Shown here: piece by piece, positions 1,967-28,347 of the stretch
Layout: each line of letters begins with the position of its first letter
Numbering within the stretch: position 1 is the stretch's first letter
IMG/VR virus record: IMGVR_UViG_3300044676_003853
Coordinates: 1 to 31,496 of that record
Direction: 5' to 3' (one strand)
DNA: 31,496 nt
Origin: a virus
Taxonomy: Duplodnaviria; Caudoviricetes
Program-made: the position numbers and the translations under genes
Notes under the pieces: generated by a model
Databases searched by the model: none
Told to the model about the DNA's origin: nothing
Seen by the model: only the letters and a program-made list of their open reading frames with translations

Positions 1967-4444
1967 TTATGGGGCATCAGACAACATATTACCTAAATCT
2001 GGTGCCCTGCCTGGTTCATCACGCCCAGGACGCCACCAATACCGTTGCCCAGTTTCGCGTCTATATCTGCTTTCTAAGCGCCGCATCTTCTGGCCGGCTT
2101 TAGGGTCTGTGTATCTTTTCATTCTATCGAACACCATACGCTCTAACCCCAGGCGCATATACCAAAGGGATACGCCAGGCGTGTACCTGGAAGCAAAACT
2201 AACAGCTTCCGTTGCGGCGTTGGTATCCGCTCCATGTGCGGCTTCAAGCAAATTGCCCACAGTCAGCTTTCTAACATCATCAATAAAGCCTACCACTGGC
2301 CCAGCAATAGTCATCTCTAGCCCTCGGTCATGCCGATTTACCTCACTGAACAGAAAATCTCCATAGATGCCGAGGCCACCGCCCTGCAAGAAGGCAGCAA
2401 GCCAGAACTCTGTGCCTTCCATTGGCCGAGGATCGCGGCCCTTGCTCATTTCTTTGAGCTGCATAGCAAAGGCACCCATAACAGTTGTGCTAATAAGAAG
2501 ATCCGCAAAGTAACCGCCTTTGCCTTTTATGCCGGCTTGGGCCATCCCGCGCATCAAATGGGTATTAATCAGGGTAACACCGAAATTCTTATACATGGCC
2601 ATAGATCTAAGCAGCTCACCCTGCAATGTTCCTGGTTGCGTGTTTCCAATTAAAGTTGCTCTACCCTTGAGGCTGGAACTAGGAACGGCAAAGTTTGTCT
2701 CAGCGTCCACCATTTCCATGACGCGGGTAGCAAGGTCTTGAGCCAAGCGAGGGTTTATATCATCACGAAACTCGATATCCTCTGCCCGTAAGAACGTAGC
2801 CCCTTCATACTCATATGGGTCAGTTGACCGGATAATGTCCCATTTGTCAGACCCGATCCCGTACTTTTCCAAGGTCTGCCGCAATGCGGGGTCAAGATCA
2901 TTAAAAGCTCTGCCAACATTATCTGCCAGGGTCCCATAGAACTCCATGCCAAAAGCCCAGCGACCAGCATTAGTAAATGGGGAAAGCAATGACGCCTTCA
3001 TGGTAAAGTCAGCAATTCGCCTGGTGATCTCTGGACCAGATATATCTCCAACATAACGCATTTGCGCTGCAGCGACAGTCATCCAGCCTTCAGCAATCAA
3101 TCCCATACGAATAGCCGTTTTACCTCTTTCCTCGACAGTCAGTGGGTTTAGCTGATCCAGGTATTGAGTAACGGTTCTAACTTGAGGCAACCCAGCTGAA
3201 CGCCTGGCAATGCGCTGAAAGTTAAGATCAGTTAAAGCAGATATAGAAGCGGCACCCAGCTGCGCTGATTGCAACACTTGTCTAATTCCTGCCATTGTTG
3301 CTGCAAACCGGCCCCCGCCAACAGGCGTGTTTACGTTTCCGGTTGCAGCCATATACAGATCTTCTAGCTTTTTGCCAGCTCTGTTGGCCCTGCTTTCCTC
3401 GGCAACATTGCCAGCTGCACGTTTTGCAATGGTTGTTTTCATAAAGTTGATTGTTGATCTTGGGTTTGGCCCCAGGATCTCCATCAATGCGATATCCCTA
3501 GACATAGTGCTGATGTGGCCCATCATGGTATCAAACGCATCAGGGTTCCCAAATTTAGTCTGGTACTCCATCCATGAGTCTGCATCTCTAAACACCAGGA
3601 ACCTGTGGTCAGTGCGCCTGTTTGCCATGCTCTTGCCGCGTCCGGCAGCTGCGCCAGGCGTGATCTTTGCCATCCCGTCTGTGCGGATTGTTTCGTATAC
3701 ATCTTTCAAAGCAAGCTCAAGACGGGCTGGCGTCATTGGCAAGCCGGTGCCCTCATCGACCATTCTTTCAACATTCAATCGAGGGGCAATAAAATCTCGC
3801 CATTCCTGGAATGTCGCTTTTCTTACTTGCAGTGTGTCGTGGAACTGCGGCAATCCCCAGCCTTGGCGCTGTACTATCCTGCCACCAGCTGCATTAAATC
3901 TTTTCCGCAGATACTCAGCTGTCGTGGCCCAGGCTTGTGCAAACTCTCTCGCAGAGGCATCTCCGGTTTCTTCTCCGAACACCTCCCGAACCATACTGTG
4001 CAGCTTGGCTTTGTTCCTGGTGCCGCCAATCAAATTTTTACGGAAAGATGCCAGGACGTTATACATATTCCTGGTTGCGGCATTGGTCACAGCATTAACA
4101 CGGTTTTCAAATGCGGAAAACTTGGCGCCTTCGTCCCTAGCAAGATGCGCTATCGCTGCTCTATACGGGTCTGCTTCACCACGATAGTTACGGTATTCAT
4201 CTAAGTTTTTAGTGATTTGTTTCCAGTTTTGGTACGCTAAGATTTTTTGGCGCTTTCGGTGTAAAGCGATATTTTCTAATGCGCTGAACGTATCCCGCCC
4301 AGCTTGTGAAGCTGCTTGCCCTGGTGACATTCTGCCCTGGTACTGAGCCTCCAGGTCATCAAACAAATCACGGGCCTCTGACGCCTGTTCTGGCGTGATG
4401 GCCCCTTCTGTCTCAGCGTTGTCTATGCAACCACGCAAACTCAT
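1967..4444 (-). CDS. Internal virion / DNA ejection protein (BPP-1/epsilon15-like, ~825 aa)
   Basis: Start re-called at ATG 4444 (MSLRGCIDNA), ATGA overlap with the upstream stop. C-terminal KGRDPRP...FWLAAFLQGGGLGIYGDFL...AGP motif characteristic of the last ejection protein of such podophages; position immediately before the tail fibre. Confidence 0.75.
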   Translation of the reverse strand: MSLRGCIDNAETEGAITPEQASEARDLFDDLEAQYQGRMSPGQAASQAGRDTFSALENIALHRKRQKILAYQNWKQITKNLDEYRNYRGEADPYRAAIAHLARDEGAKFSAFENRVNAVTNAATRNMYNVLASFRKNLIGGTRNKAKLHSMVREVFGEETGDASAREFAQAWATTAEYLRKRFNAAGGRIVQRQGWGLPQFHDTLQVRKATFQEWRDFIAPRLNVERMVDEGTGLPMTPARLELALKDVYETIRTDGMAKITPGAAAGRGKSMANRRTDHRFLVFRDADSWMEYQTKFGNPDAFDTMMGHISTMSRDIALMEILGPNPRSTINFMKTTIAKRAAGNVAEESRANRAGKKLEDLYMAATGNVNTPVGGGRFAATMAGIRQVLQSAQLGAASISALTDLNFQRIARRSAGLPQVRTVTQYLDQLNPLTVEERGKTAIRMGLIAEGWMTVAAAQMRYVGDISGPEITRRIADFTMKASLLSPFTNAGRWAFGMEFYGTLADNVGRAFNDLDPALRQTLEKYGIGSDKWDIIRSTDPYEYEGATFLRAEDIEFRDDINPRLAQDLATRVMEMVDAETNFAVPSSSLKGRATLIGNTQPGTLQGELLRSMAMYKNFGVTLINTHLMRGMAQAGIKGKGGYFADLLISTTVMGAFAMQLKEMSKGRDPRPMEGTEFWLAAFLQGGGLGIYGDFLFSEVNRHDRGLEMTIAGPVVGFIDDVRKLTVGNLLEAAHGADTNAATEAVSFASRYTPGVSLWYMRLGLERMVFDRMKRYTDPKAGQKMRRLESRYRRETGQRYWWRPGRDEPGRAPDLGNMLSDAP

Positions 4445-7400
4445 ACCGCGCACTCCCGCAATCTATCGAGCATATTTTTATCCTGTTGAATATCATCCAA
4501 CATCTGACGCCTGGTAACTGTAACAGCTATCTGGTTGCCGGCATCATCCACTGTGCTGCCAATGGGGATTTCGGTTTCGTCTAGCGCTTGCCTTGCTGCG
4601 ACTTGGGCTTGTTCGACTCTAGATACTGGCGCAGCTTCTGGGATTGCAGCTTCATCTGTTCTGCCCTCTGCTCCCCTTTCTGCTCGGCTTCGCTCCAATT
4701 GTAGCTGGACGCCATCAATGGCTGCTTTTGGTTCTGGGCCGTTGAAGCTGTCATCGGTAAGTCTTGGTCCGACATCGAGTCCACCATTGTTGTCAATGTT
4801 TGCGTATCCATCAAATATGCCTTCCTCTTTTAAAGTATAATATGTTTGCGTTGGGTTGTCACCAACCATCCGTATATAATCAGGTCCTATCAACCGGCCT
4901 GTTTCAACAAATCTGCCAAACATACGCCGCCGCGCTTCTGGGTAAGCGACTTCCATGTTTATCAATTTTACTTCATAGCCGGCATCTTTTAGCTCTTGTT
5001 GCAACTTGCGTATGCTGGCGGGGTTATCCCCAACTTTTGGGACAACCACGTTTAAACCGAAATCTTTAACAGTATTAAGCAAGCCCTTGGCTATTTCTGA
5101 GCTTTCTTCATGCACCGCCATAGCGCCGATGCCGCCTTGGTACTCTGGCATCGCTTTTTTAATTTCATCCGAGTCAATAATTGCAGCCCGTTGTTGAATT
5201 GCGATTGGATTTGCCAGGGTGCTTTTACCGGCAGCTGGTGGGCCAATTAAAATTGTTGCCTTACGATCATACGAAACTGGCGCATCAGGCACCTCAAGGC
5301 CCATTTCTCGGTATGGTAAGGTTTGCGCATCCTCAAATGCTTTAAATATTGCGTTGTCATAGCCAATAATTTCTTCGCCATCAAAATCAAATGTGCGATT
5401 TGCTTGCCATGCCTGGCTGCCATAATCTGGCGCATTTACTGTTTGCGGTATAGATTGCGCTTCTTCTAGCGCCTGGACAACAGCTGGATGTGCGTCAATC
5501 GTTGCTTCGTCAGCGCCTTCGTCAATTAATCGTTTTAGATCCTGGCGTAAATCAGCATCTTCTTGGAAACCTTCTTGGCGGGTGGCAGCCGGTTCCTCTG
5601 GCGGCGCACGGCCAATGGCCTGTTCTTCGCTAATCAGGTCGGTTTCTAGCTGATCTGCCTGGCGCTGCACACCTGGACCATTAGGGTCATCAAACAGGCT
5701 TACGTCTGGCTCTGGCTCTGCCGCACTCGCGCGGCCTTCCGTTGGAGCATTGATAGACTGTCCAACATCGCCAGCTGAGAGCCGATCAAAATCGCCTGAT
5801 TCAATTGATCGTCTGACAGCTTCGATGAAGCCTCTAGTAGCTTGTCCGTAGCTGCCGCTTTCTCTGGCTTGCCTTGCTGCAGCTGTGAGGGCGTCTGAGA
5901 GAGGCCCTTTTCTGTTTGCTTGCGCTTGTAAGAGGCTGATCGCTTGCGAGTCATTGCTGGCTCTCCTTTCATTTGCTTTCTGTGCTAGTTGGTTGCCTTC
6001 TGCTTCAAGGCGTTGTGCATTGCGTAACAAACTGGCAAATGCAGCTTTGTCCTGGCCCAGCTGCTTTCTCGCCTGGTCAAGTACCTTTGCCCGTTCCAGG
6101 AAATAACTTTCGGTAATTATCTCCTCACCAAATAATGATTCCTGTGTTCTTGTTTCTGCGCCGGACTCGATGACCTGGCGAACAATAGACTCTGCCTGGT
6201 ACTCGTTTGCTGGGTCAGTTTTAGATAAAACTTGGATAGCGTTCTTTTGCAACCCTGGGTCATCTGGTATTAACCGGCCCACGATTGCACCATAATTAGC
6301 TGGAACCACCCCGTTAATAATAGCGCCAAATGTTTCATCGTCTAACAGCGTCAGGCCTCTGGCTTGCTGCACTAGGACAGATCGAGGCGGCAACTCTCCG
6401 GCTCGTTGCGGCGCATCTCTTAACACCTTCGCAGCATCAATAGCTGTGCCGGTACCCTCTTTAATGTTTTTGACAGCGGCAATAACCCTGGCCATGTCAG
6501 GCGTAATACCATCAGACTCGCGCAACGTATGCCCAAGCAGCTCTATTTTTTGGCTTGGGTCTTGTGACTTGATACGTTTTGCCAGGCCCAGGCGCTGGTG
6601 CCCGTCTGCAATAAATTTGCGGCCATCAGCAAACTCATAAACAACAATTTGCCCAGCTGCTATGGGGTCCCAGGTTGTAACGCCCTGCAATCGCTCAGTA
6701 ACGCCAAACTCGTCACCACCGGCCTTGAATTGAAATAACTCCGCATCTACAGCAACCTCATCTGGGTCAAACACTTTGACAAGCCCGTCAACCTTGTCAG
6801 CGTCTGTAACGCTCAACAATGGCCGTGGAGGCGTTGCAGATGCGTCCGGCATAGTAGGAGCCACATTTTCGTCAACGGCTGCTACGGCGTCAGCTAGGCG
6901 TTGTTCATGCTCGGCCTCTGCGGCAATCCTGCTTGGCAAAATAGGTTTTTCTGGTTCAACCACTTGTTCACCGGCGCGGCGCTTTTGCTCAATTTTTATG
7001 GCATTACGTTCTCTAATCATTCCGTAGTTAATTTTGCCAGATTTTGTTTGAGCTTCTATTTTTCTTTCTAATGTATTTAAAGCAGCGGCAAGGGAAGCGT
7101 CATCCAAGTCTTTTACAGCTGGGATACCCTCTATCGTTTCTAATTTAAAATTAAGATCGTATGGTGTGCTTTGGGAAAGCTCATCTAATTCTAATATTTT
7201 TTCTTCCCCATCCGCGCTTCGGACAATAATCCCACCAGATTCACTTCGCTTAACAACTTGAGCGACAGATGCCGTACCGTCTGGACTATAAACAATAATG
7301 TCATCTGGATTTCCCGTGTTAAGGGGATTGTCAGCAACAATTTCTTCTAGCTCTGTTGCCAGGTCCTCTGCAATTTGCCCGTCCGGTGTTTGTCTAGCGC

Positions 7401-8172
7401 CGGTTGAGCGTATTGCTTGGATGCCTTTTTTGGCTTGTTCTGTTGTTATGCTTACTGCTTTGCCGGCGCCACGAAACGCAAACGGAAAAGCAAAACCAAT
7501 CGCCCCACCGTATTTAACAGCGTTCCAATATTGCTCATTAGTATAGGGCATACCAGTTTCCTGGTGCCACCGCTGTACTGGTATTTGAGCCAGGGCCTCC
7601 GATCCGGCACCCAGGGCCGCTTCTTGAAAGGCCATGCCCCACAAAGATTTTGCGCCACCAAACAACATAGATGAAATTAAAATAGGGTCATCTAGCCCCT
7701 CGTACATTTCACCTAATGTTCTTACTGCACCGGCTGATGTAGAAGGGGATTCCCCGCTGACACGCAAATAATCTTCACGGGCGTTTCTTGCCATCTCTCC
7801 TGCTTGGGATGCAACAGTTTCTGGAGTGTATAATCCTCGGTATTGCTCGAACTCTGGATATCTATCTATTGCTTGATTTAACTTAGCCAGGCTTTGATTA
7901 AAAACAGATGTCTGCTTTTCCGGCTCAAACAATCGAATACGAAAAGCAACAGACGGATTGTGGAATGTTTCCCCAACATTTGCCGCGTTCATCTCGTCAA
8001 TCACAGGCTGCAATATTTCTTGGTATGTCTTGGCCTTAGATGTGGACGTTAATGCAAGTTTGCTATAAGTGGTCGCCGCGTTCCAGTTTTCTTCCAGGGA
8101 CGGCGTAGGTTCTTCCTGCAGCTGATAACCGCGTTGCTCTAATGACTCTGTTTTTTTAAAAAGAAAAGTCAT
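4441..8172 (-). CDS. Large internal virion protein with ParB/Srx-like and Zeta-toxin-like kinase domains (polyvalent protein, ~1243 aa)
   Basis: Start likely ATG 8172 (ATGA overlap). Gly/Ala-rich hydrophobic ejection-protein N-terminus; IADGHQRLGLA ParB-like motif (DGHQR at 6592-6606); Walker A GPPAAGKS (5221-5244) followed by IIDSDEIK and RRRMFGRFVETGRLI, as in Zeta-toxin family kinases. Confidence 0.75.
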   Translation of the reverse strand: MTFLFKKTESLEQRGYQLQEEPTPSLEENWNAATTYSKLALTSTSKAKTYQEILQPVIDEMNAANVGETFHNPSVAFRIRLFEPEKQTSVFNQSLAKLNQAIDRYPEFEQYRGLYTPETVASQAGEMARNAREDYLRVSGESPSTSAGAVRTLGEMYEGLDDPILISSMLFGGAKSLWGMAFQEAALGAGSEALAQIPVQRWHQETGMPYTNEQYWNAVKYGGAIGFAFPFAFRGAGKAVSITTEQAKKGIQAIRSTGARQTPDGQIAEDLATELEEIVADNPLNTGNPDDIIVYSPDGTASVAQVVKRSESGGIIVRSADGEEKILELDELSQSTPYDLNFKLETIEGIPAVKDLDDASLAAALNTLERKIEAQTKSGKINYGMIRERNAIKIEQKRRAGEQVVEPEKPILPSRIAAEAEHEQRLADAVAAVDENVAPTMPDASATPPRPLLSVTDADKVDGLVKVFDPDEVAVDAELFQFKAGGDEFGVTERLQGVTTWDPIAAGQIVVYEFADGRKFIADGHQRLGLAKRIKSQDPSQKIELLGHTLRESDGITPDMARVIAAVKNIKEGTGTAIDAAKVLRDAPQRAGELPPRSVLVQQARGLTLLDDETFGAIINGVVPANYGAIVGRLIPDDPGLQKNAIQVLSKTDPANEYQAESIVRQVIESGAETRTQESLFGEEIITESYFLERAKVLDQARKQLGQDKAAFASLLRNAQRLEAEGNQLAQKANERRASNDSQAISLLQAQANRKGPLSDALTAAARQARESGSYGQATRGFIEAVRRSIESGDFDRLSAGDVGQSINAPTEGRASAAEPEPDVSLFDDPNGPGVQRQADQLETDLISEEQAIGRAPPEEPAATRQEGFQEDADLRQDLKRLIDEGADEATIDAHPAVVQALEEAQSIPQTVNAPDYGSQAWQANRTFDFDGEEIIGYDNAIFKAFEDAQTLPYREMGLEVPDAPVSYDRKATILIGPPAAGKSTLANPIAIQQRAAIIDSDEIKKAMPEYQGGIGAMAVHEESSEIAKGLLNTVKDFGLNVVVPKVGDNPASIRKLQQELKDAGYEVKLINMEVAYPEARRRMFGRFVETGRLIGPDYIRMVGDNPTQTYYTLKEEGIFDGYANIDNNGGLDVGPRLTDDSFNGPEPKAAIDGVQLQLERSRAERGAEGRTDEAAIPEAAPVSRVEQAQVAARQALDETEIPIGSTVDDAGNQIAVTVTRRQMLDDIQQDKNMLDRLRECAV

Positions 8173-10385
8173 CGCAGTGGTTCCTTGCCCCACAAAACAC
8201 GCATATCTATTTCAAACGGCTCCCCATCAAAGCCCATCACTTTTACAAAAGAAATATTATTTGGGTCAGCGTGGACAAAAATATATCTATCATCCCCAAT
8301 GGCTTGAGGAAAAATATTATCGTTTTCTTTTATTTCATTTAACATACCGGCGTCTATATCGCGGCCAGAAGCTGTCTTAAATTTTTCCGGCGTTAAGTTG
8401 CTAATAAGGGTTTCCATGTCGGGTGCGCTAAGATACGGGGGCACTAAGACCTGGCGATCACGAACTGTTCTAACGCCGCCAAGCCCCGCATTGTCCATAT
8501 TTCCATCACCGCCTAGTGCTAAATTTATAGCAATTTGCATTTCTTTATCGCCGGCAGCTTTCTGTCTGACCATGCCGCTTCTGCTCATGTTCGATCTAAA
8601 GATAGCTATAGCAGCTTCGTATGTAGCGCCAGTCACAGCTGCGGATTGTTCATTTAACGAACTGCCAACAGTTTCGTGGAACAATAACTCAATGTCGGTT
8701 TTAGTAATATCTGCCGGCATTGGGCCGCCTTCTTTGCCTAGCGCGATACCTTCTAAAATTTGACGGGCTGTTTTTGTTTTGCCCATCAACATTAGGCCAC
8801 CAACATGAGCGAACACAGGGGCTTCTTTGCTTACTTGCTCTAGGACATCTGGGGAGTCTTGCCGGAAACCTTGAACAATAGCTCCTAGAGTCTCCATTTG
8901 GGTTTGCACATCACCGTTTTCTAAAGCATTTGTTACAACTTGCACTTCGCCTTCGCGTAACGGCCCAATGTTATAAGTAGGGTATGCGCTTTGCACCGTC
9001 TGGTAATCTTGCCGGCGTTTTTCTATCGAGCTAAATAATTCGTCTGGGCTGCCCCCAAACGCAATTGCTGACGGCTGAACCAGCCCAACATTCTGGGCGT
9101 GAGTCATCCCGTCTTTTTTAAGATTAGCTCTTGTGTTTGTAATAAAACTTTGGGCAGCGTCCCTGGCTTTGACCTCTAGCACTGTGTCAATGCCTGGACC
9201 GCCAGCGCCGCTTATGCCGCCCTGCAGCTGGTCTAAAGATCGTTGCGCTTCTTCTGGGGAAGATTGTCTATAAGCTGACAATATATTTTCAACAATTTTT
9301 AATTCTTGCAGCTCTGTTCTTGCCGAAAGATTTATAGGCTGACCAGTAGACGGATCTATAACACCGTCCAGAGATGTCAACTCAGTTTCTAATTTTACTA
9401 AAACAGCCCCATCAATTTGACCGCCGCCCTCTATTACTTTTGTTAAATCTGCAATTCTATCACTTGCCAGTTTGACCTGGCCCTTCATTACTTTAACGCC
9501 AGTGTTCATTTGTGTGCGTAAAGTAGATGCTATTTTTCTGGACGCATCCCTGCCAATAGCCTTTGGCGGCGATTTCTCTAGCTTTGAAATAAATTTTATT
9601 TGTTCTTGCACAGAGCCTAGTTCTGAAAAATCAAACCGGATGCCTTCCTCGATGGCTTTTCCCCTGGTTTCTAAAAATATTTTAGATACCTGTTCTTCGC
9701 TAAATTGAAGGTCCTGCATATAGAATTGAAGATTTTTTAACTCAGCATCTATAACCGCTAGTCGTATTTCATCGCTTGGAGAATTAGACGCCGCCAGCTG
9801 GTAAATGGTTTGTTGCCTGGTGTCGATGCCAACCAGGGCACGGCCCCTGGCGTCCTGCATTGCTTTCTTGTGATACCAATCTGCATAATTTTGTGTATAT
9901 ATACCGGCTTTTGCATTTAGTTTTGCTTGCAGCTCACCGGCCAGCAATGGGTTTAGATCCGACAATGAAGCCGGTATGCCATCTGTGACATCAGCCAGGT
10001 TAGCTTGAAAATCGTCTAATGACAGCTCTTGCTGTTCAGCGGCTGAAAGCACCTGGTTCATCTCTAAGATAGCCTGGGTTTCCAACTCAGCTGATGCAAT
10101 TCTGTTTGCTGTTTCTACAGCTGCGCGATCTTCAATAGTTCTCGGACCGCCAGCTTGCTGCATGGATGATAATACGGGCTGGGCACCCTCATCGGCCACA
10201 CGCTGCATACCGCGCTGTTTGGCCTCTCTTGACTCTTGCTCAAAAGAAAACTTGGCCATTCGGCTTACAGAGTCTGAAATAGTGCGATACATATTTCGCG
10301 TTTCTGCCAAAGCCGCATCTTCTAACGGCTTGACTTGCATCACCCGCTCTTCGCCGCCTTCGTATCTTAATATTCTAGGAGCCAT
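8169..10385 (-). CDS. Internal virion protein (738 aa, helical)
   Basis: Long helical Ala/Gln/Glu-rich ORF between the gp14-like gene and the large ejection protein; GGAG RBS. Function from synteny only. Confidence 0.6.
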   Translation of the reverse strand: MAPRILRYEGGEERVMQVKPLEDAALAETRNMYRTISDSVSRMAKFSFEQESREAKQRGMQRVADEGAQPVLSSMQQAGGPRTIEDRAAVETANRIASAELETQAILEMNQVLSAAEQQELSLDDFQANLADVTDGIPASLSDLNPLLAGELQAKLNAKAGIYTQNYADWYHKKAMQDARGRALVGIDTRQQTIYQLAASNSPSDEIRLAVIDAELKNLQFYMQDLQFSEEQVSKIFLETRGKAIEEGIRFDFSELGSVQEQIKFISKLEKSPPKAIGRDASRKIASTLRTQMNTGVKVMKGQVKLASDRIADLTKVIEGGGQIDGAVLVKLETELTSLDGVIDPSTGQPINLSARTELQELKIVENILSAYRQSSPEEAQRSLDQLQGGISGAGGPGIDTVLEVKARDAAQSFITNTRANLKKDGMTHAQNVGLVQPSAIAFGGSPDELFSSIEKRRQDYQTVQSAYPTYNIGPLREGEVQVVTNALENGDVQTQMETLGAIVQGFRQDSPDVLEQVSKEAPVFAHVGGLMLMGKTKTARQILEGIALGKEGGPMPADITKTDIELLFHETVGSSLNEQSAAVTGATYEAAIAIFRSNMSRSGMVRQKAAGDKEMQIAINLALGGDGNMDNAGLGGVRTVRDRQVLVPPYLSAPDMETLISNLTPEKFKTASGRDIDAGMLNEIKENDNIFPQAIGDDRYIFVHADPNNISFVKVMGFDGEPFEIDMRVLWGKEPLR

Positions 10386-18931: not shown

Positions 18932-19410
18932 TTTCCAAACCTAACCATCATGTAATAATCTTCACCCTCTGGACCGAACCGCTCCATCAGGCTTTCCTCA
19001 TTAAAGTACAGTGTTTTTGCAAATTTGTATGCGGGTTTGTTTGCTACTGAAACGGCGATCTGAAGGCGCTTTAGGTCATATTCGTACATCATCTCGTCTA
19101 AAAACCCTCGACACTCTTTCACAACAGCTATCGGATTCTGGCGAATGTTCTTGCCCGGGAGCAGCCAAACCTCACCCACCCCTTTCCAGTATGGGCGTAG
19201 GCCAAAAATACATATTGGCTTCCCCTTGGCCATGATCGTGTATGTAAATTCCTCTATGAGTCCGTCATCAACGTATGAGATATAATCATCAAAGTTACCT
19301 TCGTAGTGATATCTTTCATAATCTCCCAGCTCCATAGAGATTAAATGCGATTTACGATAGGGGACCAGCTGGTGCCCCATGTTGATACTTGGGTGTGGGA
19401 TAAAGCTCAT
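18928..19410 (-). CDS. GNAT-fold acetyltransferase-like protein
   Basis: GKPICIFG...W.GVGEVWLL...LKRLQIAV...N..A.KFAK.L.F..E..M..FGPEGEDYYMM pattern; located between terL and portal. Confidence 0.65.
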   Translation of the reverse strand: MSFIPHPSINMGHQLVPYRKSHLISMELGDYERYHYEGNFDDYISYVDDGLIEEFTYTIMAKGKPICIFGLRPYWKGVGEVWLLPGKNIRQNPIAVVKECRGFLDEMMYEYDLKRLQIAVSVANKPAYKFAKTLYFNEESLMERFGPEGEDYYMMVRFGK

Positions 19411-20924
19411 AATACATCAAAGTCCATGTTTGCTTGATAAACGCCAGAGCCTGGCGGGGAATAGTGGCCTCTCCGCAACCGGCGTTGTTCACCGCCGCCG
19501 AGCATCAGATAGCCAAAAGCATCCCCGCAATGCGAATGTTCATTCTTTACGGGCGTATCTCGGAACCTTTCCTGGCCGGCACCCAGGCTTTGGCGTTTGA
19601 AAAAATAACCACCGGACAGACTTTTCCGCAGTCTTAGGCACTTTTTATCCACAATCAGCCCTGGTTTGCTGCTTATCAGACGGGACATAGGCGCTGCCCC
19701 AGCTTCGCGCCGGACCTGGAAAGCGTTGGTTTCAGTAGGCTGCGCCTTGAAACCCAGGCTTCTGAGGTGGTCAAACGCCGTAACCTCATAGATTTCGTCA
19801 CGCTTGTTGCCGGCAGGATCCCCCCATATCAAAATTTCCTGCTTGTTGTAGCGTTCCGCTATCCTGGCCAGCAACTCTTGGCCAAACCGTTCCAGGCCCA
19901 TATCAAACGTAACCAGCTCATCGAGGATGCGCCAGCCACCAGCCTGGGTGCGTTGCCCAAAGATTGCTGCCGGCGTCAAACCAAAGTCAACGCCGATTTG
20001 CACGGGATAGTATGGGTCCAGCTCAACATCGCCACTCATCAGCTCATCGTCATACTCTGGCCATACGGGCCGGCCTTCTTGGACAAACGTAAACTTGCCC
20101 TCGGCATAGCAGCGAATCCAGTCCAGGTTTTTACCCCCAATCAGCTGTGGATAATACCCTGGCGGTAGATTGTTTCGGTTTTCTGCAGCCGGATTTATTC
20201 GCCACCAACGCCCCGCGCCATGCACAAAATCATTTGCTTCTGGGTTTTCCGGCACTTCTTCCGGCAATGCCTGGATAACGCCGCCAGGTTGCCGGTGAAA
20301 ATTCCAGCCCCATTTTCCCTTGATGGGGTTTTTCTCAGAAACATCATGCCACCAATGGTCCGAGTCTGGCGGGTTAGTATCCATCCAGATCCCGTACCAG
20401 GACGGCCCACCATCCGCTTTAGTGGGATAACGCCCGACACGGTGCGTCAGTCCATCAATAACAGCTTTTGGCAGTTCCCTGGCTTCATTGCACCAGGCAC
20501 CGGTTATTTCCAGAGACAGCAACTTTCTAACCGATTGCGGTGTATCCAGGGCCAGGAATATAACCTCGCAGTCAATTCCGGCAGCATCGCCACGGCTGGG
20601 CAGTTTTAAATGGTGCGTGATTGGCGGCTGCCATCTCATGCCTCCCCATGTAGACTCAGGGAATAGTTCCTGCCAAGTCTTAATAGTGGTGGTTCTGAGT
20701 TCGGGGTATGTATTTCTAACGACCACAAAACGAGTATATCGGATACCATCTCTGGGGGATGGCCGTTGCTTAACAGCTCTAAGCATAATTTCTGCAGCAC
20801 ATCCATAGCTTTTTCCACTTCCAACGGGTCCCATGAGGCCTCTGACGAAACTATCATCATTTATCAGCTTCCATACTGTGGGGCTTTGTGAAAAATCTAA
20901 ATCCAGGCTAGGTACATCAGTCAC
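19407..20924 (-). CDS. terL: Terminase large subunit
   Basis: Walker A GPVGSGKS, VVRNTYPEL, Walker B WCNEARE, DTNPP coupling motif, nuclease GVDFGLTP and SHCGDAFGY. Confidence 0.95.
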   Translation of the reverse strand: MTDVPSLDLDFSQSPTVWKLINDDSFVRGLMGPVGSGKSYGCAAEIMLRAVKQRPSPRDGIRYTRFVVVRNTYPELRTTTIKTWQELFPESTWGGMRWQPPITHHLKLPSRGDAAGIDCEVIFLALDTPQSVRKLLSLEITGAWCNEARELPKAVIDGLTHRVGRYPTKADGGPSWYGIWMDTNPPDSDHWWHDVSEKNPIKGKWGWNFHRQPGGVIQALPEEVPENPEANDFVHGAGRWWRINPAAENRNNLPPGYYPQLIGGKNLDWIRCYAEGKFTFVQEGRPVWPEYDDELMSGDVELDPYYPVQIGVDFGLTPAAIFGQRTQAGGWRILDELVTFDMGLERFGQELLARIAERYNKQEILIWGDPAGNKRDEIYEVTAFDHLRSLGFKAQPTETNAFQVRREAGAAPMSRLISSKPGLIVDKKCLRLRKSLSGGYFFKRQSLGAGQERFRDTPVKNEHSHCGDAFGYLMLGGGEQRRLRRGHYSPPGSGVYQANMDFDVL

Positions 20925-21102
20925 GACTCATCCCCTCTAAGCGTTGCACCAAATACTCATCAGGACGCCGTTTGCCCTGGACCATCTCACGAACACGATC
21001 TTTTGACCGGCCAAACTGCCTGGCAATCTCAGCCTCGCTCATCCGCGCTTTCAGCATCGCCTGGGCCATCCGTAGGCCCTCTTTCTGGTACGGCGCTTTC
21101 AT
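20917..21102 (-). CDS. Small helix-turn-helix protein
   Basis: MSEAEIARQFGRSKDRVREMV HTH pattern; GGAAG RBS; overlaps terS end and terL start. Confidence 0.55.
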   Translation of the reverse strand: MKAPYQKEGLRMAQAMLKARMSEAEIARQFGRSKDRVREMVQGKRRPDEYLVQRLEGMSRD

Positions 21103-21484
21103 TATCTTCCTCCATCTCGATTGTCGGACCCTTCATGTTGATGCCAACAATGCTGGGTTTATCGTGGTGTTCTTCCTGGTCCAGCATACCGGACGCCTTG
21201 GCCAGCACTCGCAACACACTAACTTTATCGTGCATCTCAATCGTTACGTCCTCGCCGCGAACACTGATCTTCTTGATCGCCCGTAAAGCATGTTCGGGGA
21301 TATCATCGTAATCTTTGATCGTCCCGTCCAAATTAACAATGTCAGTAATGTTCGCCGTGCCCAGGGCAATTAACTCCTGGGCAACAGCTTCTTTGTTTTG
21401 GTGCAATGTCTCAGCACGGCCAACACGCCGCTGGACCATCTTGACGCCGCCAAACCGGCCCAATGGAGGACGCTTATCTGTCAT
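21029..21484 (-). CDS. terS: Terminase small subunit
   Basis: VAQELIALGTANITDIV...AIKKI...IEMHDK..VL..LAK..GML oligomerisation-type pattern; upstream of terL. Confidence 0.7.
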   Translation of the reverse strand: MTDKRPPLGRFGGVKMVQRRVGRAETLHQNKEAVAQELIALGTANITDIVNLDGTIKDYDDIPEHALRAIKKISVRGEDVTIEMHDKVSVLRVLAKASGMLDQEEHHDKPSIVGINMKGPTIEMEEDNESAVPERGPTDGPGDAESADERG

Positions 21485-21693
21485 CAGCTATACTTGCTGG
21501 GCTTGGCGTGTCTTTTCTTCAGACCGCCTTTAGCCCTTATCCGAGCCAAGACCGTCCGGTCATTTATCGCACGTTCACGATAAAACCGGCTATATGGGTT
21601 CTTCAAAGGCGCCGCAGCCGGTACCTCAACCAAACGCAACGCATCCCGCAGCTGCTCAAATGTCGGAACCTTAGAACTTAATGTCATTGTCAT
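21484..21693 (-). CDS. Hypothetical basic protein
   Basis: Likely start ATG 21693 or 21687; TGATG-coupled to terS; fills the operon gap. Confidence 0.5.
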   Translation of the reverse strand: MTMTLSSKVPTFEQLRDALRLVEVPAAAPLKNPYSRFYRERAINDRTVLARIRAKGGLKKRHAKPSKYS

Positions 21694-21940
21694 CAAACCC
21701 CGATAAGTTATCCTCAGACGCATAATCCGCTTTCGGCGGGGTAACAGCACCAGGCTGCTGCCCATCATCCTCAAACAAGTTTAACCATATATCACCATCA
21801 GCGTTTGGTATAGGCAAACTCTCCAACTTAATACGCATCTTGCCGTCCTCAGACTGAAACGCACGACCATGCTTTAACCACACCGGCTTATCACGGCCCT
21901 GGATCTCTTTGGCTTGAACCAAGTTAAACTGCTTTTTCAT
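21671..21940 (-). CDS. Putative small ssDNA-binding protein
   Basis: Start re-called at ATG 21940 with AAGGAG RBS. W.K.G.AF....GK..IKLESLP beta-rich core; acidic tail FDDNDIKF resembling the SSB DDDIPF tail. Confidence 0.55.
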   Translation of the reverse strand: MKKQFNLVQAKEIQGRDKPVWLKHGRAFQSEDGKMRIKLESLPIPNADGDIWLNLFEDDGQQPGAVTPPKADYASEDNLSGFDDNDIKF

Positions 21941-22071
21941 AGGTAACTCCTTTTTCACGAAAAATTGGAAAATATTGTTGTGGTACCCCCATATATACAG
22001 CGGTGGGGGTGGGGGGCAAGGGGTGCCCGTGCGAGGCAAAGTTAACCGAAATCAAGTTAACACTGCCCGTT

Positions 22072-22099
22072 TTGTCGCATAACGCTAATTATGCGCAAC
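22072..22099. other. dif-like XerC/D recombination site
   Basis: TTGTCGCATAA-CGCTAA-TTATGCGCAAC, 11-6-11 layout with CATAA/TTATG inner repeats. The reverse complement of the right arm (GTTGCGCATAA) matches the E. coli XerC arm GGTGCGCATAA at 10/11. Intergenic. Confidence 0.6.
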
Positions 22100-22132
22100 G
22101 GGTATCCTTTATTTACAGTCACTTGCGAACCC

Positions 22133-22141
22133 TGTGGATAA
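22133..22141 (-). promoter_or_regulatory. Perfect DnaA box (TTATCCACA)
   Basis: TGTGGATAA on the plus strand, intergenic, about 430 bp from the iterons. Confidence 0.4.
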
Positions 22142-22228
22142 AAGTTAACTGCAATCGGGTTGATGTGCCTGTTTATTGCACAGCTTGTCCTGGTCATTAC
22201 GATGCCTCCGCTCATTGTGTAAATCGCC

Positions 22229-23059
22229 CTAGATTCGCCGTAGACTGGCGCTGGTTCTTTTTAGTACCTGGTTAACCTGGTCGCTGTCTGAGCTGCCCAG
22301 AGCACGGCTGACGGGCTTGCTAAAGTATCCCAGGCCCCTGGCTAGATCCCTAGCGTTCTTCTGGCAATATGTGCAGTGATCCCGCACAACCTGGCCCCAT
22401 TGCTGGATGGTCAGACCTTGCCTGACCCATGACTCAGCCAGTTGCTCGTCACGTTCATTCCAGATCCTGGGTGTGCCGTATGCCTCTGCAGCATCTATAA
22501 ACAACTTCACTATTCTTTTTGCATCTCCCTTTATATCGTTACTATTACTCGTTAGTGTCTCGTTTAGTGCAACCTCTGGTGTTGCATGTGTGTCAACCTC
22601 AGATGTTGCACCTGTGTGCAACCTCTGGTGTTGCACCTGTCCCTTTGCAGCTGCAACCTCTAGTGTTGCACCAGCCAGTCCTGCTTCACGCTCGGCCAGG
22701 TCCATTTGTTCCCTGGCTGACAGGTTGCTGCGGCTTGTCTTGTCACTGGTGATGTCGGGTTCGTACTTAACTTTCACTGTGTTGGTCCTTTGGTCTTTAT
22801 ACTGTTTCCTGGCGTAAACCAGATAGCCGGTGTCAAACAGCTTCTTTATCTGTCGCTGTACTGCTTGCCTGGATATGCCGAGATCTGACGCAAGCCTGGC
22901 CTGGCTGACGAATGTTCGGCCCAGCTCGTCCGTGTAACCACAGATGGCTGCCAAGACTGTCAGGGCTGCCGAGCGGTTTATCCGCTGGTCCCTTACGGCT
23001 CTGATTGGCAGGATGCTGTACTTTCTTAGATCTTTGCTTCTGATTGTTGCCGGCTTCAT
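22229..23059 (-). CDS. Replication initiator (lambda O-like, N-terminal HTH)
   Basis: ALTVLAAICGY.D..G.TFVSQARLASDLGISRQAVQRQIKKL...GYL winged-HTH; iterons inside the coding linker. Confidence 0.8.
   Translation of the reverse strand: MKPATIRSKDLRKYSILPIRAVRDQRINRSAALTVLAAICGYTDELGRTFVSQARLASDLGISRQAVQRQIKKLFDTGYLVYARKQYKDQRTNTVKVKYEPDITSDKTSRSNLSAREQMDLAEREAGLAGATLEVAAAKGQVQHQRLHTGATSEVDTHATPEVALNETLTSNSNDIKGDAKRIVKLFIDAAEAYGTPRIWNERDEQLAESWVRQGLTIQQWGQVVRDHCTYCQKNARDLARGLGYFSKPVSRALGSSDSDQVNQVLKRTSASLRRI
22568..22670. repeat. Four 19-bp palindromic iterons (replication origin)
   Basis: TGCAACCTCTGGTGTTGCA at 22568 and 22617, GTCAACCTCAGATGTTGCA at 22592, TGCAACCTCTAGTGTTGCA at 22652; adjacent AT-rich tract at about 22495-22560. 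Confidence 0.85.
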
Positions 23060-23219
23060 CTTGCAGCTGCCTGGCGATTGCTTGAATAAGCTCTGGTTCT
23101 GTCCATTGCTGTCGTCCTTCCTCTTTTGGCGCCAGGAGTTTTGCTATTGCAAACACCCCCATTCCATCGAGGATGCAATCAATATAAACACGCCTGGCGT
23201 GATCGAGCCATTCAGTCAT
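22833..23219 (-). CDS. Hypothetical protein, 3' half overlapping the initiator gene
   Basis: Start coupled to the rusA stop; fills the 23060-23219 gap. Confidence 0.5.
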   Translation of the reverse strand: MTEWLDHARRVYIDCILDGMGVFAIAKLLAPKEEGRQQWTEPELIQAIARQLQDEAGNNQKQRSKKVQHPANQSRKGPADKPLGSPDSLGSHLWLHGRAGPNIRQPGQACVRSRHIQASSTATDKEAV

Positions 23220-23673
23220 CGGACCAGCTCACCGTTGCCACCATCAACGGCTGCCCGTATATCTTCTTGACTGTCAGCTCATAAACCTGGGCATCATCCT
23301 TATAAACGATGCCATTGAACGCATCTAATACTGCCTTGGCCACGTTGTCAATATCTGGCCGTCCTGGCGTGTAAATGCCAAGCAGCGCGGCATCACGCTT
23401 CCACTTTGGCCAGGACTTGGGTATCTCAAACTGTGCCAGGATGTGCATCTTGACCGGCTGCTCAGTTAAATCCATGCCCTGGAACTGCATCTCCAGCCTG
23501 GCTGCCTCGCCGATCTTATGCTCATAATTCTTGGTCTTGAGCGGTGTATATGCCCGATTGTTGGCGAACCTGGGCCGGCCTTTGCCAACCGGCTGCCCTG
23601 GCACGACAACGTGCAGCGCATCCTGCAGCGGCTGACTGGTGTAACGATCTTCCATCAATTTCTTTTGAGCCAT
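23212..23673 (-). CDS. rusA: RusA-family Holliday junction resolvase
   Basis: PGQPVGKGRPRF, PDIDNVAKAVLDAFNGIVYKDDAQV catalytic motifs. Confidence 0.9.
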   Translation of the reverse strand: MAQKKLMEDRYTSQPLQDALHVVVPGQPVGKGRPRFANNRAYTPLKTKNYEHKIGEAARLEMQFQGMDLTEQPVKMHILAQFEIPKSWPKWKRDAALLGIYTPGRPDIDNVAKAVLDAFNGIVYKDDAQVYELTVKKIYGQPLMVATVSWSDD

Positions 23674-26089: not shown

Positions 26090-26425
26090 ATGATGGATGA
26101 TTTGTTTGATACACCAGCTTATAAACTGGCAAGGCGGGATGACCCGTCAACAAGCCATGCTGCAGCTGCGTCTGTAAACGTGACCGCGCTGGAGAAAGTG
26201 GTCTATGACACGATCTGCAGCTTTGGTGATCGAGGCTGCATCGCTGACCAGGTATGTGATGCGCTGCCTGGATACAGATACAACAGCGTGACGCCCAGGT
26301 TTAAGGCTCTAAAAGAAAAGGGCCTGATAATTGTAGATGACCGTAAAAAGAAAGGCGGCAGTGGCCGCCAGCAACTTGTGATGTGGGGAAAGGATTTTTA
26401 CCATGCCAAAGCTCTCACCCGATAA
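26090..26425 (+). CDS. Winged-helix DNA-binding protein
   Basis: ARRDDPSTSHAAA...SVTPRFKAL.EKGLI...G.SGR.Q family pattern; AGGAGG RBS. Confidence 0.7.
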   Translation: MMDDLFDTPAYKLARRDDPSTSHAAAASVNVTALEKVVYDTICSFGDRGCIADQVCDALPGYRYNSVTPRFKALKEKGLIIVDDRKKKGGSGRQQLVMWGKDFYHAKALTR

Positions 26426-27410
26426 CCATTTATCCGGCAGTGTCATGCCGGCCTGGCTGGGGTATTCGCCCTGGCAGAGTCCTTATGATGTGCTTGAGGC
26501 TGCAAGGAACAGCGTCAAGGGCATCGAGCGGCCACCCTTGGATAGCTTGCCAGCTGACATCGGGACCGAGGCTGAGAACGTGATCCTGGACCACGGGATG
26601 CGGATGCTCGGCCTGGACCCTGATAAGATTGGGACACACAGCCACACAGAATCCAAGAAGCACCCGCTGATGGAGCTGTATTATACTGATGACGGGTTGT
26701 ATACTCTTGAAGAACCGATGGAGTTCAAAACAGATCCGGCTAAAAATATTTACGTTATGACACAAAGCGGCTCATTGTTTGTGGATTGTCCTCTGGTTTT
26801 GGAGGCCAAGTTCACAACAGTTCACAGACGAGCTGATGACCCGCCGTTGTATCGAGGGCCAATCCAGCTGCAAGCGGGTATGATGTGCCACGGGTATGGC
26901 GCCGGCATCTTGTTTACTTGTCACCAGGGGCGTGAAATAACAGCTCACATATTCCGCAGTCATGTGGAAACCCAGACGGCAATCAAACGAGCGGTTGCCA
27001 GTTTTGAAAAGCACATGAAGGATGGCACCTGGCCCGATCCGATAACACCGGATGAGGCCGTGCAGCGGTTTGCCCAGGTGAAAGAGGATGAGCCGCCAAT
27101 CGAGCTAGACCCTGACCTGGCCGACTCAGTGAAGCAATACCAGGCTGCAGTCGATGCTATCAAATCGGCAGAAGAAACCAAGGCAAGTGAGGCCACCAGG
27201 CTGATGACCGCCCTGGGCAACTACAGCGCCGGCAATGTTGTCGATGCCAAGACGGGCAAACAATACCAGGTTAAATGCCCGATGCGTAAATACAAGGGCA
27301 AGCCAGCTGAGAATTGTCCCAGCTGCAGCCACGAATTAAAAGCCGCAACACCGGAGCGGGAGATCCGGCAAAAGACTGTCACAATTAAGGAGCTTAACAA
27401 TGGCGAATAA
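26403..27410 (+). CDS. YqaJ/lambda-exonuclease family protein
   Basis: LSGS.....LGYSPWQSP, G...E..I, DG, LEAK, QLQ motifs; adjacent to recT. Confidence 0.8.
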   Translation: MPKLSPDNHLSGSVMPAWLGYSPWQSPYDVLEAARNSVKGIERPPLDSLPADIGTEAENVILDHGMRMLGLDPDKIGTHSHTESKKHPLMELYYTDDGLYTLEEPMEFKTDPAKNIYVMTQSGSLFVDCPLVLEAKFTTVHRRADDPPLYRGPIQLQAGMMCHGYGAGILFTCHQGREITAHIFRSHVETQTAIKRAVASFEKHMKDGTWPDPITPDEAVQRFAQVKEDEPPIELDPDLADSVKQYQAAVDAIKSAEETKASEATRLMTALGNYSAGNVVDAKTGKQYQVKCPMRKYKGKPAENCPSCSHELKAATPEREIRQKTVTIKELNNGE

Positions 27411-28347
27411 TCTGCCAACACTTGCACCAGCCAACATGACCGAGGCCATCGAGTTTTCAAAGATGTTAGCGCAATCTGAAATGGTGCCAAAAAATTATCA
27501 CCGGAAGCCGCAGGATATTCTTGTGGCCATGCAATGGGGTTATGAGGTCGGGCTGCAGCCGCTCCAGGCTTTGCAAAACATTGCGGTAATCAATGGGAAG
27601 CCCAGCATCTATGGCGATGCAGCTCTTGCCCTGGTCAAAAACCACCCGTCATGCGCCGGAGTATCGGAGCGGGTTGAGGGTGACGGCGACAACAGGACCG
27701 CTTATTGCACAGTTAAACGCCGGTACGGTGATGAAATCGAGGAAACAACCAGGACGTTTTCGGTTGCTGATGCAAAACGTGCCAGGTTATGGGGCAAGCA
27801 AGGCCCCTGGTCACAGTATCCAGACCGGATGCTGGCCATGAGAGCCAGAGGTTTTGCAGTCCGTGACGGCTTCCCCGATGCGCTGAAAGGCATCATCACC
27901 CAGGAAGAAGCCCAGGACATGCCAAAGGAACCCGTCAACGTGACGCCGCCGGACAATCCATTGGACGCCATAGCAGCTCCGACAGCGCCGGAACCTGAAA
28001 TTGTGGTGGAAGATACTGTTGAGACTGTAGAGCCTGTTGTAGAGCCACCAGAGGCCGAGGAAACACTGGTCGAATATCAAATGGTGTCTGCCGCTGGCAA
28101 GACGATGGGTGATCCCGCAACTTGCCTGGATGATTTCGCTAATGGGTTTCTTAGAGCGATGACCACATATGTCCAGGCAACTAAGACAGCCGGCGGTAAA
28201 GAGCTGACGCCCAGGGAACGCATGACAATGCTGCGGCAGCTGCGTGAAAACAACCAGGACACTTTGGATCAAATGTCTGAGGCAGATATGCAGATCATCA
28301 CTGAGGCGTATAAGAAAAACCTGGCAGCACTCGGAGCATCACAATGA
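27400..28347 (+). CDS. recT: RecT-family single-strand annealing protein
   Basis: VPKNY..KPQDILVAMQWGYEVGLQPLQALQNIAVINGKP, W.QYPDRML..RA..FA.RD.FPD.L.GI...EE motifs. Confidence 0.85.
   Translation: MANNLPTLAPANMTEAIEFSKMLAQSEMVPKNYHRKPQDILVAMQWGYEVGLQPLQALQNIAVINGKPSIYGDAALALVKNHPSCAGVSERVEGDGDNRTAYCTVKRRYGDEIEETTRTFSVADAKRARLWGKQGPWSQYPDRMLAMRARGFAVRDGFPDALKGIITQEEAQDMPKEPVNVTPPDNPLDAIAAPTAPEPEIVVEDTVETVEPVVEPPEAEETLVEYQMVSAAGKTMGDPATCLDDFANGFLRAMTTYVQATKTAGGKELTPRERMTMLRQLRENNQDTLDQMSEADMQIITEAYKKNLAALGASQ

Follow-up and report, generated by a model that had tools for sequence, protein, structure and literature searches.

A candidate host XerC/D-type recombination site beside the packaging genes of an integrase-free marine tailed phage

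Why would a tailed phage that encodes no recognisable recombinase carry a site resembling chromosomal dif, and what would the host XerC and XerD proteins do there? The question is raised by a 28-bp element in a viral record of 31,496 nucleotides, the whole of which we refer to as the window. The window is a 31.5-kb podophage-type record that is 92% complete, and because both record ends fall inside one tail gene, little of the phage genome is missing. The phage is a marine tailed phage, and its nearest isolate is the OM43 Methylophilales phage MEP301 (MW452941). The first-pass annotation of this DNA had suggested that an integrase-free phage hijacks host XerCD for dimer resolution, integration at dif or a plasmid-like prophage state. 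Much of the gene content on which it drew was found, namely an O-like replication initiator (Rep) with four 25-bp repeats, a RecE-like exonuclease, RecT and RusA. Its statement that no recombinase is recognisable also held, as neither a tyrosine recombinase nor a resolvase was found in the 92%-complete record, the remainder of which falls in the tail gene. The repressors that it listed were found in part: the small regulators are a weak Arc-like match and a 70-aa LexA-type HTH protein only, but neither a CI-type repressor nor a partition ATPase gene was recognised in the window. The genes relevant to the site are as follows.

19407..20924, minus strand: terminase large subunit (TerL), nearest isolate MEP301 at 70.8%
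21029..21484, minus strand: terminase small subunit (PF03592)
21671..21958, minus strand: small conserved ORF after the C-tract, labelled "SSB-like" from its acidic tail and position, with no family match in profile searches
22229..23059, minus strand: O-like Rep, with four internal 25-bp iterons at 22567-22675
23212..23673, minus strand: RusA Holliday-junction resolvase (PF05866)
26403..28347, plus strand: RecE-like exonuclease and RecT

Elsewhere in the window, positions 4441-8193 (minus strand) encode a 1250-aa probable internal virion protein with a Zeta_toxin-family P-loop kinase domain at residues ~978-1137 (E 2.5e-15), which is possibly an injected enzyme.

The site itself, at 22072-22099, reads TTGTCGCATAA CGCTAA TTATGCGCAAC and has an 11-6-11 layout with a perfect inner 7-bp inverted repeat. 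It lies in a gap of 270 bp, from the Rep stop (22229) to the start of the next ORF (21958), which to the eye appears to be the largest clean gap in the ORF list, in agreement with its earlier placement in the largest intergenic region. The near-symmetric site is real and unlikely to be a chance occurrence, as its core, CGCATAA-N6-TTATG, has a single zero-mismatch match in the window and was present anywhere in just 3 of 500 windows simulated with a first-order Markov model. Contigs from other runs also cover it (X3, X4, X5, X8, X14 and X15); we note that runs X1 and X2 may be the source sample of the window. The elements in and around the gap are listed below.

21966..22025, minus strand: conserved C-tract, hairpin and AAATATTTT element, kept in site-bearing and site-less relatives
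22072..22082, plus strand: XerC-side arm, identical to 4 of the 29 sites listed from the alphaproteobacterial sample
22083..22088, plus strand: 6-bp central (strand-exchange) region, which differs from the common chromosomal centres
22089..22099, plus strand: XerD-side arm, apparently diverged into a near-mirror of the XerC arm; relatives have TTATGTTAAAT or TTATGGAA.. here
22113..22125, plus strand: degenerate IHF-type site with three mismatches to WATCAANNNNTTR, in the register of the relatives' site with 0-1 mismatches
22133..22141, minus strand: DnaA-box-like 9-mer, weakly conserved

Both arms had been described as XerC-like. This is true of the sequence of the right arm, which matches the E. 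coli XerD arm at 7 of 11 positions, but relatives hold XerD arms at the same position, and we therefore interpret it as a diverged XerD-side arm. Two 11-bp arms around a 6-8-bp centre, as in plasmid xrs, are present in the window site, and the xrs pattern in which the inner 5 bp of each arm are most conserved and palindromic around an unconserved centre is found as well. An XerD arm better conserved than the XerC arm, also typical of xrs, is lacking in the window site and seen in many relatives. From these sequence features, we read the element as a host XerC/D-type recombination site rather than a repressor operator.

Comparison with chromosomes points to a host class. Of 401 alphaproteobacterial genomes sampled, 258 contain the core, mostly as a single copy and with AT-rich centres (tallies over 401 and 381 genomes include the unpublished G212, on whose sequence no claim depends). 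Listed chromosomal centres were mostly TATATA, TGTATA, TTTATA or GATATA, and CGCTAA was absent among them, with 172 matches lying beyond those listed. The earlier proposal to compare the site with alphaproteobacterial dif was informative: beyond the identity of the left arm to several listed sites, the closest relatives that carry the site have TTATGGAA.. arms, which agree with the arm seen most often among the chromosomal sites listed, and the exact symmetric form was found in 0 of 381 alphaproteobacterial genomes, with 21 matching at one mismatch. Because the left arm and the relatives' arms match those of the chromosomal sample, an alphaproteobacterial host is likely, and the suggestion that the site could help identify the host holds at class level. 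Xer-site arms may thus serve as a coarse host clue for uncultured phages. Two genomes of the alphaproteobacterial sample (G157 and G273; loci L287 and L288) contain a CGCATAA-N6-TTATGC motif 3-4 times, within a repeat context that they share; this is probably a mobile-element end, not dif.

Among relatives, the site is an accessory, exchangeable cassette. Of 80 IMG/VR TerL relatives (81-99%), many on contigs too short to reach the site position, 31 carry an 11-6-11 site 0.85-2 kb upstream of TerL. The short complete spacer between Rep and the "SSB" ORF (n=47, after three spacers longer than 900 bp, L030, L078 and L079, were dropped) had a site at 0-1 core mismatches in 29 cases and nothing under three mismatches in 18. 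The closest relative (99% TerL) has no site, and neither do the nearest relatives by Rep (L003/L268 and L267, 92-93%), so the site is not essential; the window spacer resembles that of a group at 84% TerL (L014-L021). On the TerL tree we counted nine presence changes, at least six of which are forced by well-supported branches. Where the site is present, its end lies 24-102 bp upstream of an invariant C-tract, usually at a distance of 49-61 bp.

Conservation within the cassette follows the pattern of an Xer site. Across 24 distinct family sites, the inner arms were 83-100% conserved (arm positions 5-11 on the XerC side), compared with 29-38% at two centre positions and 33-79% in the 10-bp flanks. 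The 30 family sites contained 17 different central hexamers, the last base of which was always A, and many relatives have asymmetric textbook XerD arms at the right-arm position. The TTATGCG arm form seen in the window occurred in 35 IMG/VR stretches with differing flanks and several unrelated terminase families. In run X5, assembly gave a distinct contig of 40 bp and high depth for the 33-bp core, and other contigs depart from the window exactly at the core edges. About 25 bp of flank plus the XerC arm are common to a member of this family (L004) and to members of an unrelated terminase family (L082, L097 and L100), which suggests that the cassette crosses phage families.

The site has a characteristic neighbourhood. 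In most relatives, an IHF-type motif, scored against the sequence that we take to be the IHF consensus, lies 13-14 bp beyond the XerD arm. It was found in 22 of 30 spacers with the site versus 1 of 18 without (Fisher p 4e-6, with kin not independent), and it follows the Xer site, not the C-tract. The XerC side of the window site is occupied by the conserved C/G tract, an element that we infer to be a marker of the genome-end or packaging region. Other motifs in the region had less to offer. The 9-mer at 22133..22141 was set aside as a DnaA box and may be incidental, as what is presumably the DnaA-box consensus was matched in just 3 of 48 spacers. KOPS (GGGNAGGG) were likewise set aside, with none on either strand of the window and few expected in 31 kb. 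Two GTTAAC palindromes 9 bp apart lie between the C-tract and the site (22040-22062), with a third at 22144; the pair is retained also in the site-less L003, and these palindromes are a possible operator.

Sites of this kind also occur beside terminase genes in unrelated viruses. A search for textbook arms in 12 of 64 parts of IMG/VR returned 120 loci from an estimated ~700 stretches, of which 8 with short flanks and 26 near-duplicates were dropped. Annotation covered the loci as far as L216 that were 3 kb or longer, with one to three of the longest ORFs each. Among the loci annotated, TerL lay within 3 kb of 30 of 42 sites with a non-host centre and of 1 of 18 with a host centre, and 14 of these 18 had inovirus markers. 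All but one of the 30 TerL-proximal sites were upstream of TerL, mostly with an intervening C-run. Among the loci kept, a G/C run accompanied 32 of 61 non-host-centre sites versus 2 of 25 with host-like centres, and the IHF-type motif stood at offset 14 in 11 of the 61. Some other contigs differ in character. Two P2-type terminase/portal contigs (L146 and L170, site at ~3000) have E. coli-type arms and the centre GCACCA, and L170 has its own integrase within 1.1 kb of the site. In two more (L085 and L112) the sites are doubly symmetric, lie within 2 kb of a tyrosine recombinase gene and have another half-site close by; these sites may be targets of a phage-encoded recombinase.

Some cultivated phages place such sites within their end repeats. 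A family site was matched by 275 isolate records, and the 120 of these listed include many rV5-like coliphages and Barbaviruses; rV5-like phages that infect laboratory E. coli K-12 are among those with a match. In Vequintavirus EdH4, a site with both E. coli arms exact and a centre differing at two positions occupies nt 170-197 of an end repeat that is exact over 459 bp (L257/L258), and in Pseudomonas phage SYP the site is at nt 134-161 of a 351-bp end repeat (L259/L260). The T7-like Ralstonia phages RpY2 and RpT1 (L264 and L265) carry it twice, at both record ends, although their records are labelled circular and the end copies may be assembly overlaps. The sites of all four phages have non-host centres and are unannotated in the records. 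In C72C1, the IHF motif, site and C-tract lie between terS and TerL. Phage phiM5, which is unrelated to the window family and has no dif-like site, has a similar C-tract at nt 315 of its annotated 357-bp terminal repeat; about 315 bp upstream of the tract are inside the repeat, so a terminal repeat can include the DNA immediately upstream of a tract of this kind. A dif-like site was absent from MEP301 and Hodr and from the genome ends of Ss1 and BcepC6B, and H101 gave a BLAST match but no site passing our site filter. The window's own site had one weak match among isolates, and blastn of the C-tract against them gave no match beyond nine weak records. For the window phage, contigs of the runs aligned to the window showed no pile-up of starts or ends, and by eye no clear clustering of contig ends was evident at the C-tract.

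Integration at chromosomal dif through the window site, as had been proposed, was unsupported. A metagenome scan for tract plus site gave 25 loci, of which 18 had Rep on the far side, six were matched to phage loci (PHROG or blastn) and the remaining one, L323, had host chromosome on both sides. Thus 24 of the 25 had phage on both sides, and none had a phage-host junction at the site. No joint into host DNA was seen in 8 runs, no integrated copy through a window-type site was found among 21 GTDB loci (all with TerL at ≤69%), and no close relative lay on a chromosome-scale contig, the longest contig among 104 Rep relatives being 35.7 kb. We note that MAGs often omit prophages. CGCTAA was absent among the listed chromosomal centres, but a non-host centre alone does not exclude integration, since gokushoviruses integrate despite variable spacers, according to the available text of PMC7062461. 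Nor is the missing integrase an argument for Xer integration, because site-less relatives are also without one (PF00589 was found in none of 5 relatives with the site and none of 5 without it). An O-type origin is nothing unusual in lytic replication. A plasmid-like prophage state likewise found no support, because of this and because a partition gene was not found; the 46 ORFs, searched with Pfam and PHROG, included no partition or plasmid-maintenance gene apart from a weak (E 6e-4) match of an 84-aa Arc-like protein.

The search for related prophages at dif did uncover one, but it is a distant relative using a different site. This prophage (G005:C36; TerL 65%, portal 58%) is a ~35-kb tailed prophage at 63502-98856 (L123, L283-L284) and sits exactly at the host dif, between host mazG and a metallo-beta-lactamase-fold/tatD cluster. 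A 16-bp repeat, with copies at 63502 and 98829, marks its limits and consists of the XerC arm and centre of the host dif; the other arm is non-XerD. The prophage attaches through a site in its early region whose centre is identical to that of the host, and no dif is present in its C-tract spacer. Its genes include a serine resolvase and an XerC-like tyrosine recombinase (L283:4610-5521), which scored 268 bits against a cut-off of 335 and had no IMG/VR relative. In 10 further portal-bearing genomes, pattern and portal were at least 59 kb apart wherever they shared a contig, and in five of these genomes the pattern was on other contigs only or absent.

We propose that both virion ends of the window phage carry the site and that they are joined by host XerCD in a manner similar to the use of loxP by P1, an explanation that we consider about evenly balanced between right and wrong. 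The observed basis is the site, its conservation, its fixed place before the tract, its gain and loss and the linked IHF-type motif, together with the equivalent sites within the end repeats of EdH4 and SYP. The cassette, beside the packaging genes, would likely lie inside a terminal repeat, by analogy with phiM5. Host XerCD would bind the site and either circularise an incoming genome by recombining its two copies or link sister genomes through their ends. The variable centre would favour self-by-self recombination and disfavour crossover with chromosomal dif. Activation by FtsK could be replaced by IHF bending or by an XerC-made Holliday junction, which RusA might complete together with branch migration across the homologous repeat. 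The gain would be fast end-joining ahead of phage gene expression. RecE and RecT may provide a slower homologous route, so the cassette would be optional.

Some evidence runs counter to this explanation. The XerD-side arm and the IHF-type site are both degraded in the window, which also has no KOPS on either strand, and FtsK is reported to be required at 28-bp sites that lack ArgR/ArcA accessory DNA (10.1101/2024.04.05.588136, in the text available). Only one copy of the site would exist if packaging started at the tract and proceeded in the direction of transcription. More broadly, and with somewhat less confidence than an even call would imply, we suggest that host Xer sites with private centres have come to lie repeatedly in the terminal repeats of tailed phages from many families, among them lytic phages, often with an IHF site at a fixed distance. 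The host dimer resolvase would then act as an expression-free end-joiner on entry, the cassette would be mobile between unrelated phages and the symmetric form may run FtsK-independently, XerC-first and RusA-finished. The first-pass reading was right that the site is of Xer type, but it missed the packaging-region tract, the IHF-type motif and the terminal-repeat sites of cultivated phages.

Several other explanations share part of this evidence. Phage DNA packaging generally needs multimers. This weighs against the use of the site, as in plasmid xrs, for dimer resolution or catenane unlinking of replicating circular phage DNA, in lytic theta replication or a carrier state. The O-type origin, RecE/RecT and RusA could generate dimers, no duplication of the site is required, and unconserved centres are typical of plasmid xrs (rule iii in the available text of 10.1101/2024.04.05.588136); however, dimer resolution leaves unexplained both the clustering at terminase and terminal-repeat positions in unrelated phages and the occurrence in T7-like phages, and a partition gene was not found. 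We regard it as unlikely, although the first-pass suggestion of XerCD hijack holds to the extent that a recombinase-free phage carries a candidate host XerC/D-type site, for which dimer resolution is possible and integration is not indicated. IHF assists processing of lambda cos and P1 pac. XerCD and IHF could similarly bind without productive recombination, shaping or shielding a DNA end for packaging or entry or titrating Xer and FtsK, and the abutting presumed packaging tract, the diverged XerD-side arm and the KOPS-free genome are consistent with this. Yet the exact 6-bp spacing and the invariant A beside the XerD arm are catalytic requirements, and the IHF-type motif goes with the Xer site and not with the tract, which makes binding alone distinctly improbable.

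Use of the site as attP, with integration at dif by host XerCD as in mobile elements that exploit Xer to integrate (IMEXs), is very unlikely. It would be in keeping with the absence of a recombinase from the record and from 10 relatives, the G005 prophage exactly at dif, the few family sites with host-like centres (L063 and L064) and the spacer tolerance of gokushoviruses (PMC7062461, in the text available). The lack of any junction or joint into host DNA, the host-flanked L323 and the short contigs of Rep relatives all count against it, as does the reliance of G005 on a different early-region site and its own XerC-like gene. Integration here would also separate Rep from the co-oriented terminase genes, and no CI-type repressor was found. 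That the cassette is a decaying passenger in the window phage and functional in relatives would fit the 7/11 XerD-side arm, the three IHF mismatches and the site-less sister genomes, but the recurrence of the TTATGCG arm with different flanks in 35 stretches across unrelated families, and the separate high-depth core contig in run X5 and the departures of other contigs at the core edges, leave this a slim prospect. Least credible is that the palindrome is an operator of the phage Arc-like or LexA-type HTH protein. The near-perfect symmetry in this genome and its two small regulators invite the idea; however, orthologous sites lose symmetry toward the host XerD arm, and because these textbook arms break the palindrome we exclude a homodimeric phage repressor. 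The same arms are also found in chromosomes and unrelated phages, and L003 retains both regulators (98%) without the site.

Phage use of Xer has so far been described as an integration route in small non-tailed viruses. If the end-joining explanation is true, joining of a phage's own ends would be a third use of Xer, and XerCD would be a host factor in the first minutes of infection by common lytic phages such as rV5-like coliphages, Barbaviruses and T7-like phages. A dif-like site in a viral contig would then be no evidence of lysogeny. In the literature that we searched, largely outside subscription journals, we found no description of Xer sites in the terminal repeats of tailed or lytic phages or beside terminase genes; the phage and plasmid Xer sites described were those of non-tailed IMEXs and plasmid xrs. 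The word "phage" does not occur in the main text of the xrs study (10.1101/2024.04.05.588136), the supplementary site list of which may hold phage-plasmid sites, and the available text of a T5 preprint (10.1101/866236) has no instance of "xer".

Its setting distinguishes the window site from chromosomal dif, IMEXs and plasmid xrs, which have the same kind of site. Chromosomal dif with XerCD-FtsK, in Alphaproteobacteria and E. coli, has the same 11-6-11 layout and inner arms, and the window left arm is identical to several chromosomal sites; in contrast to dif, the window site has a non-host centre, a diverged XerD-side arm and an IHF-type neighbour, is optional and terminase-adjacent, and is without KOPS. 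IMEXs (CTXphi, VGJphi, TLC, Vibrio DJR prophages and enterogokushoviruses) likewise have a dif-like site and no integrase, as the available texts describe (PMC12715192, PMC9966536, PMC7062461), but they are non-tailed and found integrated, whereas no integrated copy was found for the window site, whose class-mates include lytic-type phages. Plasmid xrs (cer, psi and R27 xrs) are also host Xer sites with unconserved centres and self-by-self use; in the available text of 10.1101/2024.04.05.588136, their accessory DNA is ArgR/ArcA-PepA on the XerC side, whereas the phage family has an IHF-type motif on the XerD side. MEP301 resembles the window phage in its gene set and has a G-tract in a spacer comparable to that of the window, and its genome ends were not determined in the paper as available (PMC8024684). 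Unlike the window phage, it has no dif-like site. P1 encodes its own recombinase, Cre, which acts at loxP to circularise terminally redundant DNA. The available text of 10.1101/2021.07.08.451572 stresses RecA-RecBCD in P1 circularisation. The logic that we propose is the same as that of P1 loxP, in that a site in redundant ends would close the incoming genome, but the window phage would use a host enzyme.
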